Positions 3,270 through 42,531 of a stretch of 64,000 nucleotides of DNA are shown here, in pieces. Both the position numbers and the translations under genes were made by a program. Each line of letters starts with the position of its first letter. Within the stretch, counting starts at the first letter, position 1. The DNA lies in assembly GCA_050253335.1 (NCBI GenBank), contig JBFWJG010000001.1, positions 46,153 through 110,152 on the forward strand, read 5' to 3'. Under the pieces are notes generated by a model that worked only from the letters and a program-made list of their open reading frames with translations, had not been told where the DNA came from and did not search any database. The stretch is from Deferribacterales bacterium (GTDB lineage Bacteria; Chrysiogenota; Deferribacteres; Deferribacterales; Geovibrionaceae).

Positions 3270-3635
3270 ATGATGGATGCTGAAAGGTTAAGCTACCATA
3301 GACAGAAACTTCTCGATATGAAGAAAGAACTTATCGAGAAGCTGAACGAAAAGTATAACGAAGCGATCAAGCTCGGTACTGAAGGGGTTCAGGATTCCGC
3401 TGACGAGGCTTACAACATCTACAACAAAAACCTCATGCTCGGTAAGGTCGAAACCGATGCGCTTAAACTCAGGCTGGTTGAGCAGGCTCTCCAGCGCATA
3501 GCGACCGGAACCTACGGAGTGTGCATTGAGTGCGAGGAGGAGATCGAGCAGAAAAGGCTTGAGTATGTCCCCTTCGCAAGGTACTGCACCGACTGCAAAT
3601 CCGAACTGGAAAAAAAGGGTCTCATAAAAATGTAG
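3270..3635 (+). CDS. dksA: TraR/DksA family C4 zinc-finger regulator
   Basis: DSADEA coiled-coil tip, GTYGVCIEC...RL...PFARYCTDC. Confidence 0.85.
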   Translation: MMDAERLSYHRQKLLDMKKELIEKLNEKYNEAIKLGTEGVQDSADEAYNIYNKNLMLGKVETDALKLRLVEQALQRIATGTYGVCIECEEEIEQKRLEYVPFARYCTDCKSELEKKGLIKM

Positions 3636-3897
3636 CATAAGCCCCGCGGGAGCAGGTTTTCTTCTTCCGCGGGCAGTTTGTTTATTTCGGCTTAAATCAG
3701 GTCTTTTTCTGTTGCCGTTTTTCACCGCCTCTATTATCTTAACGCTTGCGCGCGCATTTCGCGAGAATGTGGTTTTGCTGAAAATCATTCTCCGCTGTTC
3801 TGTGTGTCCTCCGTGCAGCCGGACCTTGTTTATCAGGGTGCGGGCGTGTATGGAAATTCTCATGGCTGAAGAATTTTTTTGTTAATGAAGGTGCATT

Positions 3898-5421
3898 ATG
3901 GCAGCAAGACTCATTTTACTGATACTCGACGGCTGGGGCTGCCGCGAAGATGAAAGAAACAACGCGGTTTCCCTGTCCCGTCCGGCTAATTTTCTGAAGC
4001 TGATGAAAACATGCCCCCACACCCTGCTTGATGCCAGCGAGGAGAGGGTCGGACTGCCCGCGGGGCAGATGGGCAACTCCGAGGTCGGGCACACCAACAT
4101 AGGCGCGGGACGCATAGTCTATCAGGATTTCCTGAAAATCAGCATGGATGTCCGCTCCGGCGAGATTGAAAAAAACACAAATATAAATACATTCTTTGAA
4201 GACACGCTCAAAGGTTCAGGCAGGCTGCACTTCTTCGGTCTGCTTTCAGACGGCGGAGTACACAGTCACATCGACCACCTGAAAGGTCTGGTGAAAATGG
4301 CGCAGGCAAAAGGTATTTCGCATATCTTCATCCACGCCTTCACCGACGGCAGGGACACCCCCCCTAAAAGCGGCATAGATTACGTCAGGGAGATTGAAGC
4401 ATTCCTTGAGGAAACCGGGGCAGGGCGGATCGCCACTGTCTGCGGCAGGTATTACGCCATGGACAGGGACAAAAGATGGGACAGAGTGGAAAAGGCTTAC
4501 AACATGCTCCGTCTGGGAGAGGGACGAAAGGTTCAGTCAGCTTCTCAGGCAGTGCTCGATTCCTACGCGGGCAGTGAGACGGACGAGTTCATTCAGCCCT
4601 CAGTCATTCAGGGTGTTGACGGAAAAGTGAAGGACGGGGATTTTGTCTTTTTCTATAACTTCCGTGCCGACAGAGCCAGAGAACTCTGCCTCGCCTTCAA
4701 TGACCGCAGCTTCGGCGGTTTTGCCCGCAAAGACCACCCGCATGTGAACTTCATGACCCTCACCAGATATGAGAAGAACTACACCTTCCCCGTGGCCTAT
4801 CCGCCGGAGGAGCTTAACGAGATATTCGGCGAGGTCATCAGCCGAGAAGGCTTAAAACAGCTCCGCATAGCCGAAACCGAGAAATACGCCCACGTGACGT
4901 ACTTCTTCAACGGCGGGCGGGAGACCGTTTTTGAGGGTGAGGAGCGCGAGCTTATTGAATCCCCCAAGGACGTGCCCACTTATGACAAAAAACCTGAGAT
5001 GAGCGTTTATAAAGTCGCTGAAAAATTCAGGGAAGTTTTCCTGAAAGGTGATGTTGACGTGGCTGTTATGAACTTCGCAAACCCCGACATGGTGGGGCAC
5101 ACCGGAGTTGAGGAAGCGGCGGTTAACGCCTGCCGCGCCGTGGATGAATGCCTGGGCGAAGTAATCCGCATCGCGGATGAAACAGGCGCGGTTCTTGCCG
5201 TTACGGCGGATCACGGCAACTGTGAGCAGATGTGGGATTATGAAAACGATCAGCCCCACACTGCACATACCTTGAATCCTGTGCCGTTTATAGTTTATAA
5301 TTATAAATGCGTACTTCAGAGCGAAAAAGGCAAGCTGGCGGACATTGCGCCGACCCTGCTTGACATCATGGGAATAAACCAGCCGGAAGCAATGACCGGA
5401 AAGTCGCTTCTGGTAAAATAA
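3898..5421 (+). CDS. gpmI: 2,3-bisphosphoglycerate-independent phosphoglycerate mutase
   Basis: ILDGWG, GQMGNSEVGH, DGRDT, AETEKYAHVT, NPDMVGHTG. Confidence 0.97.
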   Translation: MAARLILLILDGWGCREDERNNAVSLSRPANFLKLMKTCPHTLLDASEERVGLPAGQMGNSEVGHTNIGAGRIVYQDFLKISMDVRSGEIEKNTNINTFFEDTLKGSGRLHFFGLLSDGGVHSHIDHLKGLVKMAQAKGISHIFIHAFTDGRDTPPKSGIDYVREIEAFLEETGAGRIATVCGRYYAMDRDKRWDRVEKAYNMLRLGEGRKVQSASQAVLDSYAGSETDEFIQPSVIQGVDGKVKDGDFVFFYNFRADRARELCLAFNDRSFGGFARKDHPHVNFMTLTRYEKNYTFPVAYPPEELNEIFGEVISREGLKQLRIAETEKYAHVTYFFNGGRETVFEGEERELIESPKDVPTYDKKPEMSVYKVAEKFREVFLKGDVDVAVMNFANPDMVGHTGVEEAAVNACRAVDECLGEVIRIADETGAVLAVTADHGNCEQMWDYENDQPHTAHTLNPVPFIVYNYKCVLQSEKGKLADIAPTLLDIMGINQPEAMTGKSLLVK

Positions 5422-34450: not shown

Positions 34451-34524
34451 AGCGAGATAATTTTTACTCAATGGTGAGATAATTTTTTCTTGAAGCGGTT
34501 TGATACTGTCAAAAACAGTTTGAA
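34451..34524 (+). repeat. left-end motifs of the Mu-like element
   Basis: gAGATAAtttttactcaatggtgAGATAAttt and tgtcaaaaacagtttga; inverted counterparts at 47820-47920. Confidence 0.65.
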
Positions 34525-34528
34525 ACAC

Positions 34529-34560
34529 GAAAAAGGGCGGGATAAAAACCGCCCTTTTTC
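34529..34560 (-). terminator. terminator of the leftward repressor/cargo operon
   Basis: gaaaaagggcgg...ccgccctttttc. Confidence 0.8.
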
Positions 34561-34562
34561 AT

Positions 34563-35306
34563 TTAAATATTGTTCAAAAGTGTTATTGCGTTTTTGTCAT
34601 TCAAATCATACATTTTTTTCCACTCTGATAGCTGCCTAAAGCTAAGGGAAGGGAAACCTCTCAATATGTGTTCAACATCATATTCAAAATGGGCATATTT
34701 TTCTAAAAGTGCTTCCTGTGATGCCGAAAACATTTTTTCTTTTTTAGTTGCTATTAATGTGGTCATTAAAAGCTCGTTGTAAATCCAAGGAGAATATGTT
34801 GAGTAGTCATTTTCAACAGAGTTATCTGATTCAAGAAAAATAAAAACGGGTGTTTCCGAAATCATTTTAGTTAAAGCTGTAGACAAAATTATATTAATAT
34901 TATCTACACACCTTATTATTTGTTTTTTATTACTCATTGATCCAGTTAGTTCTTTAATCAAATTGTCTTTATATCCCCATACATCTGAATCAATAAATGT
35001 TGTTAAATCTAATTCTTTTGATAGCCAGTTTGAAAAATATTGTACTAAATCAACATCTGCATGGGAATGAGATAAAAAAATATCTGCATTTATTTGCGGA
35101 AACCAATCATTTTCAAGCCTAGCAACGTCAATCGTCTCATTTTTTAGAACATCGACCTTCCCTTTCAAATACTGCAAATATGGGCTATAGCTTCTTGTGC
35201 TTGCTTTTAGCCTTTTATCAAGTATTTCGCTAAATAAAAGATCTAGTCTTTTGGATGGTACAAACCTTTTAATTTCTGCTTCATTAATCTTAAACTTAAG
35301 GAACAT
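34563..35306 (-). CDS. TIR-domain protein (candidate antiphage)
   Basis: DIFLSHSHAD, FIDSDVW and SPWIYNEL (putative catalytic Glu) are TIR-like motifs; very AT-rich. Confidence 0.75.
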   Translation of the reverse strand: MFLKFKINEAEIKRFVPSKRLDLLFSEILDKRLKASTRSYSPYLQYLKGKVDVLKNETIDVARLENDWFPQINADIFLSHSHADVDLVQYFSNWLSKELDLTTFIDSDVWGYKDNLIKELTGSMSNKKQIIRCVDNINIILSTALTKMISETPVFIFLESDNSVENDYSTYSPWIYNELLMTTLIATKKEKMFSASQEALLEKYAHFEYDVEHILRGFPSLSFRQLSEWKKMYDLNDKNAITLLNNI

Positions 35307-35315
35307 GCCTACCTC

Positions 35316-35777
35316 CTATTGAAAATATGTAACAACGAGTGCAACCCCTGTTAAAATGAAATAAAGAGGAGCAACCGACCAAGTGAAAAAATTGTCTAAA
35401 ATGGAGCTTACTTTTTTATATGACATATCTGGCTTTAGATTAAAAAGTGTCCTGTCATCAAATTTACCGTCAAGCATAGCGGTAACAGCTTTATCGTATT
35501 TTGCTGTATAATCTTTTCTCAAAGCAGCATAGAGAGCATTCTGAACACCAAGAAGCACTATAACGACAAGGCATAAGGGAAGCTTCAAATTTGCCTGAAC
35601 AGAGTCATTGCTCAAAGCAATAATAGCTCCAACGATAAGTACACAAAGCATTCTACATTGAGATGAATAAGTAGACATTCTCACTATATTTTGCTGTATA
35701 AATTCAAGATAAGCGATAAATGAAGGTGAATCTGCTGTAGGCTTTTTTGAGCAATCTGAAGAGTCTTTATTTTCCAT
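35316..35777 (-). CDS. 3-TM membrane protein (TIR-associated effector-like)
   Basis: YLEFIQQNIVRMS then hydrophobic helices and a C-terminal WSVAPLY TM. Confidence 0.65.
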   Translation of the reverse strand: MENKDSSDCSKKPTADSPSFIAYLEFIQQNIVRMSTYSSQCRMLCVLIVGAIIALSNDSVQANLKLPLCLVVIVLLGVQNALYAALRKDYTAKYDKAVTAMLDGKFDDRTLFNLKPDMSYKKVSSILDNFFTWSVAPLYFILTGVALVVTYFQ

Positions 35778-35800
35778 TGTATAACCTTCTATGATTTCTT

Positions 35801-36475
35801 CTATTTTATTGACATTACATAGGTATAAAGCTTTTCGAGCTGCTTGAAATTCAGTTCCTTAAGAGATGATATTTCAACGTCCAGTAGCCTTTGAGCTATG
35901 ATGTAAGCATCATTCTTCTTATACCCTTTTTCCTTGAGCCTAACATGGATTGCAACCTGCCAATCTTTCATCACTTGGTTAGAGGTTATGTTGGGGGAGA
36001 TCTTACGCAAACGTGCTATCTGGCTGTTGAGATACTTTTGAATAGTAGGAAAATCGACTTGCTTAAGTTGATTATATTTCGTTACTTTAAATCTTCTGCA
36101 CAAAACCCCATACCACTTTTTATAAAGCCCTTGGCGGGTTTTAGTGTTGTCTGTGTCAAGGTCAACAAGCTCCTCAATCTTTGTGCGGACGGTGAGCTGT
36201 TGGGCAGGTGTTATGTCATCAGGCTGAGGAGCAATGACATGCTTTTCTGTGATCTTGGGGTTTACGTTCGTGATGAACTGGTTGTTGCTTCCTGCTATCT
36301 GGACGTTATTGTTGCCTTCAATGGATTGGCTTACGTTGGTCCGGGAACTGACCTGAAGGTTGCCGTCACCTTTAACCTTTTGAGAGGCTCTGCTTGTGTT
36401 TCCCAAAGGTTTCTTTCTTTTCTTAGCTTCTTTGAACAAGTCTATAATTTTGCCTTTTGTATCTTTGTCAGACAT
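35801..36475 (-). CDS. protein with N-terminal Q/N/G repeat motif and ORF6C-like DNA-binding region
   Basis: SQKVKGDGNLQV..SQSIEGNNNVQIAG; WYGVLCRRFKVTKYNQLKQVDF resembles ORF6C. Confidence 0.6.
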   Translation of the reverse strand: MSDKDTKGKIIDLFKEAKKRKKPLGNTSRASQKVKGDGNLQVSSRTNVSQSIEGNNNVQIAGSNNQFITNVNPKITEKHVIAPQPDDITPAQQLTVRTKIEELVDLDTDNTKTRQGLYKKWYGVLCRRFKVTKYNQLKQVDFPTIQKYLNSQIARLRKISPNITSNQVMKDWQVAIHVRLKEKGYKKNDAYIIAQRLLDVEISSLKELNFKQLEKLYTYVMSIK

Positions 36476-36497
36476 AATCAGCCTCTAAAATTATTCT

Positions 36498-36956
36498 TTA
36501 GTCTTCCATGAGGTTGTCAAATTTATATTTTTTTATACCTGCTTCAACAATACTAAATTCATCTTTCAATTTATTGTTCATCAGTACATAGTTATTTTGA
36601 AGTCTTGCAAAAATGCAATATGCTATGATTATTACAATTAATGAATGTATGGGGCTGAAAATATATGAAACTACGATAACCGATAAAAGAGTAATAATTA
36701 ACAATACAAACTTGTTCCATTCAAAATTGTCCACGTTTTTCTTGCTTTCTGCATTAAGTCTGTTAATTTCAGCATTAATCTTTTCAGGACTAATACGAGA
36801 TTTATTATTAGTAATGTTGAAATACTGGGTAAGGTCTCCTGACAGTTGTATGTTTCCACTGCCTTTAATATATTGACTTCCCGCCTCATGTGACTTGTAT
36901 TGTTGATTTTCATCACCGATAATTTTTTGAGATATTTTGTCATCTTTATCAGCCAT
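36498..36956 (-). CDS. 2-TM membrane protein with the same N-terminal Q/N/G motif
   Basis: SQKIIGDENQQY..SQYIKGSGNIQLSG followed by two hydrophobic helices. Confidence 0.65.
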   Translation of the reverse strand: MADKDDKISQKIIGDENQQYKSHEAGSQYIKGSGNIQLSGDLTQYFNITNNKSRISPEKINAEINRLNAESKKNVDNFEWNKFVLLIITLLSVIVVSYIFSPIHSLIVIIIAYCIFARLQNNYVLMNNKLKDEFSIVEAGIKKYKFDNLMED

Positions 36957-36964
36957 ACACACAC

Positions 36965-37390
36965 CTACGAAGCAAGGCTTATCAAATTGCGTATTTTATC
37001 TTTGTCTATAGTTGATTTCTCACTATTCATTGCGTCCTGAAGCAGGAGCATTACTAGCTTACTTTTCTTATCAGGCTTCATATAGAGGTCATTTTTATCC
37101 AATATTTCTTCAACTGTCTCAATAATCACTCTGAGCTTGTTTTCGATATTTTGGAAACCATTTGCTACTGTCTTGTACTCTTCTTTTGTATTTCCATTGA
37201 TAATCCAATTTAAATCTTGGTCATGGCATACTGAGAATATTTTCTCATAATCAAGAGAATTTCTTTTTTTCCATGTTGAAACCGTATTGGGCTTGATTTC
37301 AAGTAGTTGAGCAAGCTCCACATCACTGTGTAACCCTTTTACTTTTTTCAAACGCTCAATAACTAAAGTGGCATTTTGCGATTTTTCCAT
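36965..37390 (-). CDS. phage CI-like HTH repressor
   Basis: IERLK...SDVELAQLLEIKPNTVSTWKKRNS...DLNWIING; divergent from the ner-like gene. Confidence 0.85.
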   Translation of the reverse strand: MEKSQNATLVIERLKKVKGLHSDVELAQLLEIKPNTVSTWKKRNSLDYEKIFSVCHDQDLNWIINGNTKEEYKTVANGFQNIENKLRVIIETVEEILDKNDLYMKPDKKSKLVMLLLQDAMNSEKSTIDKDKIRNLISLAS

Positions 37391-37419
37391 TTGACACATT
37401 CTCAATTTGCGATTATTAT
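37391..37419 (+). promoter_or_regulatory. sigma70 early promoter of the element with candidate operator
   Basis: TTGACA-17-TATTAT; tttgcgatt occurs twice nearby. Confidence 0.7.
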
Positions 37420-37452
37420 AACGTATTAAAACAGTTTAGCACGAGGTCAACG

Positions 37453-37716
37453 ATGACACAATATGAAATCAAAACGGTTTTGACAGAGGAGATTAAACGG
37501 AAACTGCTTGAGAAGGGGCATTCCATATCGTCTTGGGCAAGGCTGAAAGGGTACAGGGTTCAGAACGTCATCACCTACATTGACCGCTATTCATCAAAAC
37601 CTCAACTGCCTCAAAGTCCAAAGATATATGAAATTTTACTTAACATTCGCAAAAGTACGGGTGTTGACCTCACAACAGGAAGAATACACAGCATGAGTAT
37701 AAGAAAAAGTACATAA
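37453..37716 (+). CDS. Ner/Cro-like DNA-binding protein
   Basis: EIKRKLLEKGHSISSWARLKGY, Ner-like HTH; position opposite the repressor. Confidence 0.7.
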   Translation: MTQYEIKTVLTEEIKRKLLEKGHSISSWARLKGYRVQNVITYIDRYSSKPQLPQSPKIYEILLNIRKSTGVDLTTGRIHSMSIRKST

Positions 37717-38751: not shown

Positions 38752-39276
38752 GTGCAAGGTACAGGTTTTAAATTAGATACGAGCGAGCTTGAAGATCTTT
38801 TCAAGGATCTGTTAGCGAAAATTGCAAATCCTAAACCTGCATTGCGTGATATAGGCGAAGCTCTTGTCTCTAGCACAGTCGAACGTCTGTATGATGGTGT
38901 CACACCTGAGGGGAAAAAGCAAACACCCGTTAAAAATCGTCCTGGTGAAACACCCCTATTGGATTCGACAGACTACTCAAGAGGCTTCAAATATGCAGTA
39001 GGTAAAGATTGGGTTGTTGTTGGCACGAATAAGCCGCAAGCCCGTCTGCTGCACAAAGGCGGTGTGCTTGAACCCAAAGTAATCAAATCCAAAGTAGGCA
39101 AAGACGGTAAGCGTAAGCCTTTAGCTTTTACCATAGGCGGTAAAAAAGTCTTTGCCCATAGTGTAAAAATTCCTGCGGTCACAATACCCGCTAGACCGCA
39201 CATAGGCATAAGTGAAGATGATAAGGAAGAGATAGCCTATCTTATAAGGCTTTACTTATCAGGAGCAGCAAAATGA
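38752..39276 (+). CDS. phage virion morphogenesis protein (Mu gpG / P2 gpS family)
   Basis: P.L..IGE.L..ST..R, VVVGTNKPQARLLHKGG, IPARPHIGISEDD. Confidence 0.85.
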   Translation: MQGTGFKLDTSELEDLFKDLLAKIANPKPALRDIGEALVSSTVERLYDGVTPEGKKQTPVKNRPGETPLLDSTDYSRGFKYAVGKDWVVVGTNKPQARLLHKGGVLEPKVIKSKVGKDGKRKPLAFTIGGKKVFAHSVKIPAVTIPARPHIGISEDDKEEIAYLIRLYLSGAAK

Positions 39277-40749: not shown

Positions 40750-42531
40750 ATGTCACCTGAAGCTCTGAATCACATAAAAACCTCTCTTGAGACCTGCGAA
40801 ACGCCTAAGGAACGCACCATCGAAGCCGCAAGGTTGAGTGAGTTCTACGGTATTTCTACCGCTTCATTTTGGAGATGGGCAAACAAGGCGGGTTTTCGGG
40901 TGCGTTCGGCACGCTCCGACAGGGGTAAAAGCGAGCTGACAGATGACGAGTTGAAGCTTATAGCCGCTAGAGTGCTTGTGGGCAAGCAGTTAAGGAACAA
41001 GTTTACCAACTCCGTTAAAAACGCCCTTGAGGAGCTTGCAAGAGAGGGGTTCACCTTCCCTGTGGGGTATGAACGTATATGCTCACTGCTTCGTGAAAAG
41101 GGGTACGACAAGGAGAGCTTGGCGACTATTCCGCCCCATGTAAGGCTTATCTCAAAGCACCCGAACGAGACATGGCAGTTTGATGTTACCAACTGCTTAC
41201 AGTGGCATTTGGACAAGAAAACAGGGCTTACAGAGCGTGATTTGGAGATGAATTTCTACAGCAACAAGGCTGTGAAGTTTCTTAAAACCATCAAAAGGGA
41301 GCTTCTCCGCTTCGTTATGGTTGACCATTGCACGGGTGCTTTTTTCTTCTGGTATTACTATGTTCCCGGCGAACGTGCAGAGGAAGGGGCGGACTTCTTT
41401 TATAAGGCTTTTGCTAGGAAAGACAGCCTCATACAGACCTATCTGAACTCTGAAACAGGCATGTACCAGATGCACGGAGTACCTTTCAGGCTTGTTTCCG
41501 ACAAGGGGTCAATCCTTAGGCATAAGTCTATTATCAACCTTATGGACGCTCTTGATGTGAAGATTGAGCTTCATGCCGCAGGCAACCCAAGGGCAAAAGG
41601 CAAGGTTGAACGCCTTATGCGCACCATAGGCACTAAGTTTGAAACAATCCTGAAAGTACGCCGACCTGTAGACCTTGCCGAGCTGAACCGATGGGCATTG
41701 GCATGGTGCATTAACCATAATCAGACCTTCGTGAGCAAAAAGAAGGAGCTTCCTGCCGCTGAATACTGGCTGAAGATAAGGCAGACAGAACTTAGGCTTT
41801 GCCCTCCCGAAGAGCTTTTTAAGACCCTTATACACAGGGCGGATTATGAAAGAACGGTTGACGGCAGTGGGCATATATCATTCCACGGACGGGAGTATTT
41901 TATCAAAGATGTCAACGCCGTACGCAAGAAGGTTAAGGTCACTATCAATGCCTATGAATACCCACTGATTGATATTCATTTTGACGGGCATGTATGGAAG
42001 ACCGCCCCTATAGGAACAGACGAATACGACAGGCTGATAAGCCCTGCAAACGTTGAATACGGCACTTACAGGGCATTACCCCATACCATCACGCAAAAGC
42101 ATATCAGCGAGCTTGAACAGGTGGCTATAGACAACTTTGGAGTCGGTTTTAAGGGTAATAAGCAGAAACGCCAGTCCATAGCCCCAGAACGAGGCAAAGA
42201 GAAGATTAAACCTATGGATAAGGTCATTCAGCCTGAGAAGGTTCACCATCTTCAGAAACAGGGCATTGAGCTTGTAACGCCTGATATCCATGCACCTTTG
42301 ACGGAAAAAGAGGAAAGGCACTACACCGTTACGCTTCTGTTTGACACTGGTGAAAAACGCCTTAGCACAACCGACTTGATACTCCGTATTGTTCGGGAGG
42401 TTCGTAAGCTCTCGGTTGAGGAAAATAAAGCGATAAAAGCACGTTGGAAGAACGGAGTAACAGCCACAGAGGCAGACCAAATTATACAGAACATGCTGGA
42501 GGTGACACATGCCGAGAGTAATTACAGCTAA
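40750..42531 (+). CDS. Mu-like DDE transposase
   Basis: PNETWQFD, VDHCTG, VSDKGS, GNPRAKGKVER integrase-core motifs. Confidence 0.9.
   Translation: MSPEALNHIKTSLETCETPKERTIEAARLSEFYGISTASFWRWANKAGFRVRSARSDRGKSELTDDELKLIAARVLVGKQLRNKFTNSVKNALEELAREGFTFPVGYERICSLLREKGYDKESLATIPPHVRLISKHPNETWQFDVTNCLQWHLDKKTGLTERDLEMNFYSNKAVKFLKTIKRELLRFVMVDHCTGAFFFWYYYVPGERAEEGADFFYKAFARKDSLIQTYLNSETGMYQMHGVPFRLVSDKGSILRHKSIINLMDALDVKIELHAAGNPRAKGKVERLMRTIGTKFETILKVRRPVDLAELNRWALAWCINHNQTFVSKKKELPAAEYWLKIRQTELRLCPPEELFKTLIHRADYERTVDGSGHISFHGREYFIKDVNAVRKKVKVTINAYEYPLIDIHFDGHVWKTAPIGTDEYDRLISPANVEYGTYRALPHTITQKHISELEQVAIDNFGVGFKGNKQKRQSIAPERGKEKIKPMDKVIQPEKVHHLQKQGIELVTPDIHAPLTEKEERHYTVTLLFDTGEKRLSTTDLILRIVREVRKLSVEENKAIKARWKNGVTATEADQIIQNMLEVTHAESNYS

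Follow-up and report, generated by a model that had tools for sequence, protein, structure and literature searches.

Two adjacent genes, p3 and p4, were analysed in the leftward repressor operon of a Mu-like element carried by a 64,000-nucleotide (nt) stretch of Deferribacterales bacterium DNA (GenBank assembly GCA_050253335.1, contig JBFWJG010000001.1, positions 46,153 to 110,152 of the forward strand); this whole stretch is called the window below, and its coordinates are counted from its first letter. The two gene products have in common one 37-amino-acid (aa) segment made of two pseudo-repeats and are unlike in the remainder; judged from their sequences, they may be described as an amyloid-signalling-like motif pair in which motif, partner domains and genomic niche are all new. 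The reading favoured here, held tentatively and given somewhat less than an even chance, is that the segment is a HET-s/RHIM-like assembly module of two beta-arch or beta-solenoid windings, by which p3 as sensor would be coupled to p4 as membrane output.

Shared segment of p3 and p4: BLASTP of p3 against p4 gave a single aligned region (p3 29–82, p4 9–64; 21/56 identities, E 5e-7), and the gapless 37-aa alignment with 16/37 identities, which a preliminary description of this DNA had given, was reproduced from the translations; its coordinates, 36275–36932, mark where the p3 motif ends and the p4 motif starts. The two pseudo-repeats per protein, described there as standing 18 aa apart, were recovered with a single-repeat hidden Markov model (HMM; p3 30–44 and 48–62, p4 11–24 and 28–42), the repeat having a core of about 14 aa, the consensus Q-x-I-x-G-(D/N)-x-N-φ-Q-φ (φ, hydrophobic) and a period of 18 aa. 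Outside the motif the proteins differ as had been stated: the C-terminus of p3 is all-helical in the AlphaFold2 (AF2) model, and p4 has two hydrophobic segments (80–98 and 99–117), predicted as transmembrane helices by the Kyte-Doolittle scale. For p4 no Pfam, PHROG or PADLOC family was obtained, and in word-index searches of 5.8 billion proteins p3 and p4 each retrieved only themselves. The back-translated two-repeat DNA pattern matched the window exactly twice (0 matches in 100 shuffles).

Q, N, G and S abound in the segment, and the DNA pattern, when applied elsewhere, also caught N/Q-rich low-complexity false positives (L052 and four others; L and P numbers denote loci and proteins, respectively), as would suit a chance or low-complexity resemblance or a recent functionless local duplication. 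That explanation is already refuted by shuffles, family search and pairing counts and is given next to no probability. The local score of p3 against p4 was 87; the best score in 2000 whole-protein shuffles was 67 and that in 5000 composition-preserving shuffles of the motif segment was 55 (0/5000 reached the score of the pair), so the match is not an effect of Q/N/G composition, and a composition artefact was rejected. Furthermore, over 60 independently sourced proteins carry the conserved motif, and p3 and p4 are no more alike than motifs taken from unrelated genomes, on which ground a recent tandem duplication was likewise rejected.

Extent of the motif family: the 2-sequence motif profile was run against 1.84 billion representatives, and 22 further proteins were obtained at E ≤ 1e-3, all with both repeats; in the 24-sequence alignment G36, N39, Q41, Q50, G54, N57 and Q59 (p3 numbering) are invariant (24/24) and Q32, D37 and I52 nearly so. 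In IMG/VR, 27 loci were found with a peptide pattern. The back-translated DNA pattern gave 11 loci in 185,579 species genomes, of which 10 were true (Achromobacter, Pusillimonas, Paracandidimonas, Aromatoleum, Rhodocyclaceae, Bowmanella, Colwellia, Shewanella and a proteobacterial metagenome-assembled genome) and one, L042, was false; in metagenomes it gave 25 loci, 21 true and four false (L052, L046, L049 and L065). Taken together, the DNA and peptide patterns yielded about 60 loci, mostly in Mu-like or P2-like prophages. At 4001–5083 (+) of L052 an open reading frame (ORF) of more than 800 aa with N/Q/G-rich low-complexity repeats (N-G-N-P-N-Q-Q-N type) was seen; with six DNA-pattern matches but none to the protein HMMs, L052 was rejected as a family member. 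The motif was found in at least five unrelated contexts; among its carriers are proteins of 59–121 aa with the motif at the C-terminal end, proteins of 240–289 aa in which a conserved helical domain follows the motif (the long "IGAN" class), and proteins of 145–258 aa with an ORF6C-like domain, as p3. The p3-like and the long class were aligned by hhalign over 189 columns including the C-terminal domain (probability 99.4, E 1e-21).

The family is rare. In a profile search of 63 genomes of the same order, the window's own genome was the only one with a convincing match, the best elsewhere having E 0.03, and the motif is absent from the other 62; neither the region nor p3 nor P0005 was matched in 50,697 phage records by blastn/tblastn; L029 had no blastn match among complete genomes of E. 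coli, and viral scans with P0006 and P0024 found nothing. Every named source annotates the family proteins as hypothetical, and no description of the family was met in full-text searches of the literature, the BASS1–11 logos and supplements lying outside that comparison, so that overlap with a published list is possible.

Two features of family members lie outside the repeats. A short conserved peptide, hydrophobic-hydrophobic-x-F/L-P/K (I-I-Q-F-P, I-I-D-L-F-K), and then a helix stand ahead of the motif in most members (p3 aa 9–14; N-termini of P0003, P0005, P0008, P0009, P0013 and the 162-aa protein of L025); p4 is without the peptide and the helix that follows it. Proteins of 96–111 aa with an N-terminal peptide x-N-V-H-F/I-L, a helix, the two repeats and a hydrophobic beta-like tail (I-G-A-V-Q-L-V-V-x-V) were seen beside a P2-like Burkholderiales-type prophage repressor (L014–L024, L026, L028, L030, L031, L036, L041, L055, L057–L060, L064 and L069); no motif-bearing neighbour of these was detected, and they may serve in self-assembly, as decoys, or together with a partner encoded elsewhere. 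The small partner-less proteins have the gpD and tape-measure genes adjacent in P2-like prophages.

Paired occurrence: 5470 ORFs of 71 sources were searched with the single-repeat HMM, matches with 1e-5 ≤ E < 0.3 being classed as weak or single-repeat. All of these (23/23) adjoin another match on the same strand, and none was found elsewhere in the 5470 ORFs. That homologues should keep the motif as a pair had been set beforehand as a test, and the expectation was borne out by all assessable loci of the p3 family (12/12), each of which has a motif-bearing neighbour with one or two repeats (9 at E < 0.05). In eight loci (the window, L013, L029, L037, L039, L044, L045 and L063) the neighbour has transmembrane segments. 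The partner in the seven long-class loci is 123–147 aa long; it carries a single repeat at the N-terminus (Q-x-I-D-G-x-N-N-x-Q-V-G), a zinc ribbon of CxxC...CxxC type and either one or two transmembrane segments, and its start codon overlaps the stop codon of the gene for the soluble protein. Every complete long-class locus (7/7) combines two repeats on the soluble protein with one on the membrane partner; the same 2+1 pattern was found in L025 (a zinc-ribbon transmembrane protein with one repeat and a 93-aa protein with two) and in L043 (a 65-aa two-repeat protein and a 326-aa protein with a weak N-terminal repeat), and the window itself is 2+2. The pattern in the relatives resembles the copy-number asymmetry described for HET-s-type motifs.

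Predicted structures: AF2 modelling of p3 with the family alignment gave a six-helix domain at 90–222 and four motif strands (32–35, 40–43, 50–53 and 58–61; pLDDT, the predicted local distance difference test, 73–88 over the motif); the 42-aa motif modelled with 38 sequences (pLDDT 80.9) had the same pattern, strand-turn-strand twice. Neither the p3 model nor the motif model had a Foldseek match in the PDB at E ≤ 0.001. In an exhaustive alignment of the motif model with 48,161 solved chains, the only chain at Z ≥ 2 was the HELLF prion fibril 6eka (Z 2.5, root-mean-square deviation 5.1, 39 aligned), and the motif profile gave a single match among PDB sequences, to two left-handed beta-helix coils of LpxA (3hsq_A, E 0.025). 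The left-handed beta-helix of LpxA has 18 residues per coil, equal to the period of the motif. Both hints point to two beta-solenoid windings that could be completed only by stacking on further copies, though both are weak and neither is significant alone. Complex prediction of p3 22–75 with p4 3–56 (score 0.02, mark 0.32) speaks neither for nor against binding. A search of the ESM Atlas with p4 gave nothing above chance level; from its inferred topology, the p4 motif and C-terminal tail would both be cytoplasmic.

C-terminal domain of p3: against Pfam ORF6C (PF10552) p3 scored 16.3 bits (cutoff 22, E 0.0095), which is below the gathering score; the ORF6C model matched 2/24 family members at E ≤ 0.01 (best 7.2e-7), and ESM Atlas structural matches named ORF6C were obtained over p3 85–224 (TM-scores 0.64 and 0.75, predicted models on both sides). 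An ORF6C fold of this domain is supported by these matches, as far as predicted models allow. Of the "ORF6C-like DNA-binding region" of the preliminary description, the fold was retained and the binding of DNA was set aside as unsupported. The best matches of the p3 model given by VIA-align, namely SaPI2 Stl (Z 7.4), the Red-beta C-terminal domain (Z 7.3) and NinB (Z 7.0), were rejected, and no fold was assigned from them because all lie under the Z of 8–13 that helical models reach by chance.

Proposed mode of action: p3 and p4 would both be made from the repressor (lysogeny) operon of the Mu-like prophage; p4 would span the inner membrane as a hairpin, N-in/C-in, which leaves the motif exposed to the cytoplasm; the C-terminal domain of p3 would sense a trigger (e.g. 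a superinfecting phage or a stress signal), and p3 would oligomerise; the p3 windings would stack and recruit or template those of p4, as in HET-S/NWD2 and Bab/Agp; and p4, clustered or activated in this way, would bring about superinfection exclusion or abortive infection. Such a role is supported by the position of the pair directly behind the repressor in Mu-like prophages, and in the window a TIR-plus-transmembrane defence-like pair follows. By analogy, p3/p4 would be comparable to RexAB of phage lambda in logic and, as far as that system has been described, to Bab/Agp in mechanism. RexA and RexB of lambda, one a soluble sensor and one a small protein of the membrane, are transcribed together with the prophage repressor and work against other phages in the lysogen. 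The likeness is one of gene logic only, a soluble and a small membrane protein in the repressor operon; unlike p3 and p4, the Rex proteins are not known to share a peptide, and no Rex family was among the Pfam matches of the window proteins at E ≤ 0.1.

Comparison with amyloid-signalling systems: as in known amyloid pairs, adjacent genes encode proteins that have a short motif in common and are otherwise built of unrelated domains. Bab/Agp (BASS11) of an E. coli ECOR25 prophage is described as an amyloid-motif pair without an NLR (nucleotide-binding leucine-rich-repeat protein) that acts in abortive infection (Ibarlosa et al., bioRxiv 10.1101/2024.11.07.622273). By that description, p3/p4 are like it in that the genes are adjacent in a prophage, the short G/N-containing motif is the only common part and the sensor is not an NLR, the Bab/Agp partner being thought to target the membrane; they are unlike it in having two 18-aa repeats, placed N-terminally in a two-helix transmembrane hairpin protein and N-proximally in an ORF6C protein. 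The comparison rests on the description and not on the BASS11 motif letters.

HET-s-type (HRAM) motifs are, in the descriptions consulted, pseudo-repeats of 21 aa, two on one partner and one on the other. p3/p4 and their relatives resemble HET-S/NWD2 and HELLF in the two pseudo-repeats, which would give two windings, in the pairing of two-repeat with one-repeat partners among the relatives, and in conserved Asn, Gln and Gly in register. They differ in the period, 18 and not 21 aa, and in the 2+2 repeats of the window; in the relatives it is the soluble protein that has two repeats and the membrane partner that has one, which inverts the arrangement of HET-S/NWD2, and neither a HeLo domain nor an NLR belongs to the system. 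RHIM, PP and BASS3 share, in the same descriptions, a central G-φ-Q-φ-G core. The present motif is like them in a Q flanked by aliphatic residues and then G, with N nearby, the single-repeat partners elsewhere reading N-(I/V)-Q-(I/V)-G; it is unlike them in N in place of the first G and, in p3 and p4, in A or S before the last G.

A number of these and other observations weigh against a templated p3–p4 assembly. p3 reads N-V-Q-I-A-G and p4 N-I-Q-L-S-G, the G-φ-Q-φ-G signature thus being absent from both, and the Pfam scan of the window proteins gave no RHIM (PF12721), HET-s or Hexapep model at E ≤ 0.1; the RHIM/BASS-like membership proposed earlier is not supported. No NACHT or NB-ARC domain was found by Pfam in the operon proteins or the 24 family members, although an NLR is not obligatory for an amyloid pair, because Bab/Agp, as described, has none. 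No Bell/HeLo-type domain was found by Pfam in the operon proteins, and the p4 motif is N-terminal, ahead of the two-helix hairpin, and not C-terminal as in Bell/HeLo effectors. The matches to HELLF and LpxA count here by their weakness. The invariance of G, N and Q is partly ascertainment, because the profile and the patterns selected those residues. The motif, its conservation across the family, its recurrence in neighbouring genes with unrelated partner domains, the place of the pair in the operon, the predicted strands and transmembrane segments and the fusions rest on observation; direct contact of p3 with p4, a templated or amyloid nature of that contact, the trigger and the output at the membrane are what we infer. 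Of the amyloid-like sensor/effector pair of the preliminary description there remain the motif, the pairing, the predicted strands and a precedent without an NLR; DNA binding and the RHIM/BASS membership do not.

Of the 46 deduplicated locus configurations, 14 are pairs and 32 are single proteins without a detectable motif-bearing partner (all small except that of L053, which is of the long class, cut at the contig end and not assessable). Moreover, the p4 motif is 39% identical to the p3 motif, compared with 36–49% for motifs of other genomes, and by eye it is most like the long-class motifs of other genomes, which would point to module shuffling; no excess of similarity within pairs is apparent by eye in the listed repeats, so the pair-specific co-variation typical of known amyloid pairs was not seen. 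These counts and identities also suit an explanation in which the motif acts separately in p3 and in p4, with no contact between them, by binding a third partner (host factor, envelope or nucleic acid) or by homo-oligomerisation, and in which adjacency arises from domain shuffling in a recombination-prone accessory slot beside the repressor. We consider it improbable: the motif-bearing neighbour is kept in 12/12 p3-family loci across Mu-like phages that differ widely in G+C and taxa, the stop and start codons of paired genes often overlap, secondary matches are adjacent without exception, and fusions unite the partner types in one polypeptide.

Repressors as partners: in four loci (L008/9, L010, L011 and L012) the motif-bearing neighbour is a helix-turn-helix (HTH) repressor-like protein with one repeat and a coiled coil, whose gene occupies the place of the repressor in a Mu-like phage and is transcribed divergently from the Ner-like, transposase and MuB-like genes. 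Among the 49 proteins given by a long-class profile search and related sequences, P0064 joins an HTH repressor, N-rich G-x-N-N-x-I repeats and the p3-type domain, and P0065 and P0066 are HNH nucleases fused to the p3-type domain, in P0065 through one repeat, G-N-N-N-V-Q-V-G-R-D-L; read as Rosetta-stone fusions, these are hints that the domain works with repressors and nucleases. ORF6C occurs in ESM Atlas clusters combined with HNH, TIR, Mrr_cat, P22_AR_N or pRha domains, and the fusions to HNH or HTH together with the clusters containing HNH, TIR and Mrr_cat may represent effector swapping.

At 3421–4519 (+) of L071 and 3466–4513 (+) of L072, the C-terminal tail of an HTH repressor and the N-terminus of the adjacent ORF6C-type protein share another short peptide, of A-A-G-R-D type; its details are the same within a locus and different between the two, which looks pair-specific (n = 2). 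P0020 carries a peptide of this type after its two repeats of the Q-type described above. In P0058 the Q-type repeat is replaced by G-N-G-N-N-V-A-G-R-D-I, and the sequences of P0058 and P0065 are intermediates linking the Q-type repeat to the AGRD motif; the two are probably one superfamily. In the AGRD pairs of L071 and L072 one copy is on the repressor tail, whereas the CI-type repressor of the window has no motif in its sequence and the carriers there are p3 and p4.

These partners raise an explanation without templating: the motif would be a constitutive hetero-oligomerisation module of a lysogeny switch, a short beta-helix or beta-sheet interface, and p3 an anti- or co-repressor-like factor, held at the membrane by p4 here or bound to the repressor in other phages, that controls induction or immunity. 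We regard it as rather unlikely, though deserving of serious attention. ORF6C is typical of phage anti-repressor-type proteins (the combinations with P22_AR_N and pRha; for p3, weak PHROG "anti-repressor" matches at E 3e-4), the gene is always beside the repressor, and the HTH partners, P0064 and the repressor tails of L071 and L072 all fit, the HTH partners fitting control of a lysogeny switch at least as well as abortive infection; with an HTH repressor as the motif partner in four loci and one fusion protein, control of the repressor has to be reckoned with as an alternative to abortive infection. RstC of the Vibrio satellite phage RS1, a small anti-repressor, inactivates its repressor by driving aggregation and is thus a precedent for a repressor as motif partner; we know of no shared-motif logic in RstC. 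Against the switch stand the motif-free repressor of the window, the combinations of the domain with HNH, TIR and Mrr_cat, which point to conflict systems, and the ladder-type conservation of N, Q and G with the two-to-one repeat asymmetry, which are traits of templated beta-solenoids; two isolated windings of 18 aa would, moreover, be unlikely to form a stable closed domain.

A broader conjecture, which we put forward as doubtful, is that temperate phages wire their immunity operons with prion-like two-winding peptides: an ORF6C sensor would template the neighbouring output, be it a membrane hairpin (death or exclusion), an HNH nuclease or a repressor (induction through templated aggregation), the Q-type and AGRD motifs forming one superfamily independent of NLRs and of Bell/HeLo domains. 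If templated stacking of p3 and p4 is true, the motif would found a new family among the amyloid-signalling sequences of bacteria or phages, and Bab/Agp would be the only earlier system of this kind with a tie to phage biology. It would also be without precedent in three respects: its place in the repressor operon of transposable and P2-like prophages, its two-helix transmembrane, HTH and HNH partners, and its construction from HET-s-like double repeats. The system is small (two proteins of 224 and 152 aa, seven invariant residues) and could show how a lysogen turns the sensing of superinfection or stress into membrane damage or prophage induction. Even as a plain hetero-oligomer, the family identifies an unannotated companion of Mu-like repressors and a use of the ORF6C domain as a modular partner of defence-type effectors.

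Genomic setting: the leftward operon (34563–37405) consists of five co-directional genes with gaps of at most 23 nt; its features are collected in Table 1. The hairpin and T-run behind the last gene are, on reading of the letters, likely the operon terminator.

Table 1. Features of the repressor operon and its surroundings (positions in the window)
Feature	Position	Strand	Basis
CI-type repressor of the Mu-like element, first operon gene	36965..37405	-	Pfam Phage_CI_repr E 2e-9; PHROG transcriptional repressor E 1e-9
p4, 154 aa from GTG (152 aa from ATG at 36956); N-terminal two-repeat motif and two-helix transmembrane hairpin	36498..36962	-	ORF list
p4 motif, aa 11–47, two 18-aa pseudo-repeats	36822..36932	-	single-repeat HMM matches 11–24, 28–42
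p4 hydrophobic hairpin, aa 80–117, two predicted transmembrane helices	36612..36725	-	Kyte-Doolittle 19-aa windows 1.99, 1.94
p3, 224 aa, soluble; N-terminal helix, two-repeat motif, helical ORF6C-fold domain	35801..36475	-	ORF list; AF2 mean pLDDT 82.9
p3 motif, aa 31–67, two 18-aa pseudo-repeats, four short predicted strands	36275..36385	-	BLASTP, single-repeat HMM, AF2
p3 C-terminal helical domain, aa 85–224, ORF6C-like, candidate sensor or partner-binding domain	35804..36223	-	Pfam, ESM Atlas, hhalign
Cargo gene 1, downstream, 153-aa membrane protein	35316..35777	-	PADLOC PDC-M50A (candidate system) E 2e-12; phrog_19896 E 3e-10
Cargo gene 2, downstream, ThsB-like TIR protein, last operon gene	34563..35306	-	PADLOC ThsB PDLC00430 E 4.9e-40; Pfam TIR_2 E 0.0045
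GC-rich hairpin, then T-run, directly 3' of the TIR stop codon	34530..34562	-	read from sequence; consensus scan did not list it
Divergent Ner/Cro-like HTH gene opening the rightward early operon of the Mu-like element	37453..37716	+	phrog_8503 E 2e-10; phrog_925 HTH

A promoter-like site was seen at 36493–36520 (-), just upstream of the p3 start and inside the end of p4 (TTGACA, 16 nt, AAGAAT; 10/12; a consensus match only); p3 and the genes downstream of it could be transcribed from it apart from the repressor.

The last two genes (34563–35777, -), encoding the ThsB-like TIR protein and the 153-aa PDC-M50A-like protein, resemble a Thoeris-like TIR-plus-transmembrane defence pair; no SIR2 or Macro ThsA is present with them. 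As a part of the motif system they were rejected, since related loci run into host genes directly after the motif pair. In L037 and L045 a Mu transposase is divergent from the repressor, and in L037 and L044 host genes directly follow the gene of the transmembrane partner; we therefore take the motif pair to be the final cargo on the repressor side, the window's TIR/PDC-M50A pair being an addition.

No RNA dataset is listed among the sequencing runs for the window DNA, and matches to metagenome contigs say nothing on expression. The DNA of 34500–37500 was found with 3 base differences (36272, 36845 and 37054) in metagenome contigs of two other studies, and the element is therefore not unique to its source sample. 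Beyond the Ner/Cro-like gene, the Mu-like element of the window has a transposase (40750–42531; phrog_310 E 1e-51), a MuB-like protein, Gam and a Mor-like activator. A tail-completion or virion-morphogenesis gene (38752–39276, +; Pfam Phage_tail_S E 4.5e-19) stands among these early genes, ahead of the transposase and after the Ner-like gene, an odd position in a Mu-like element.

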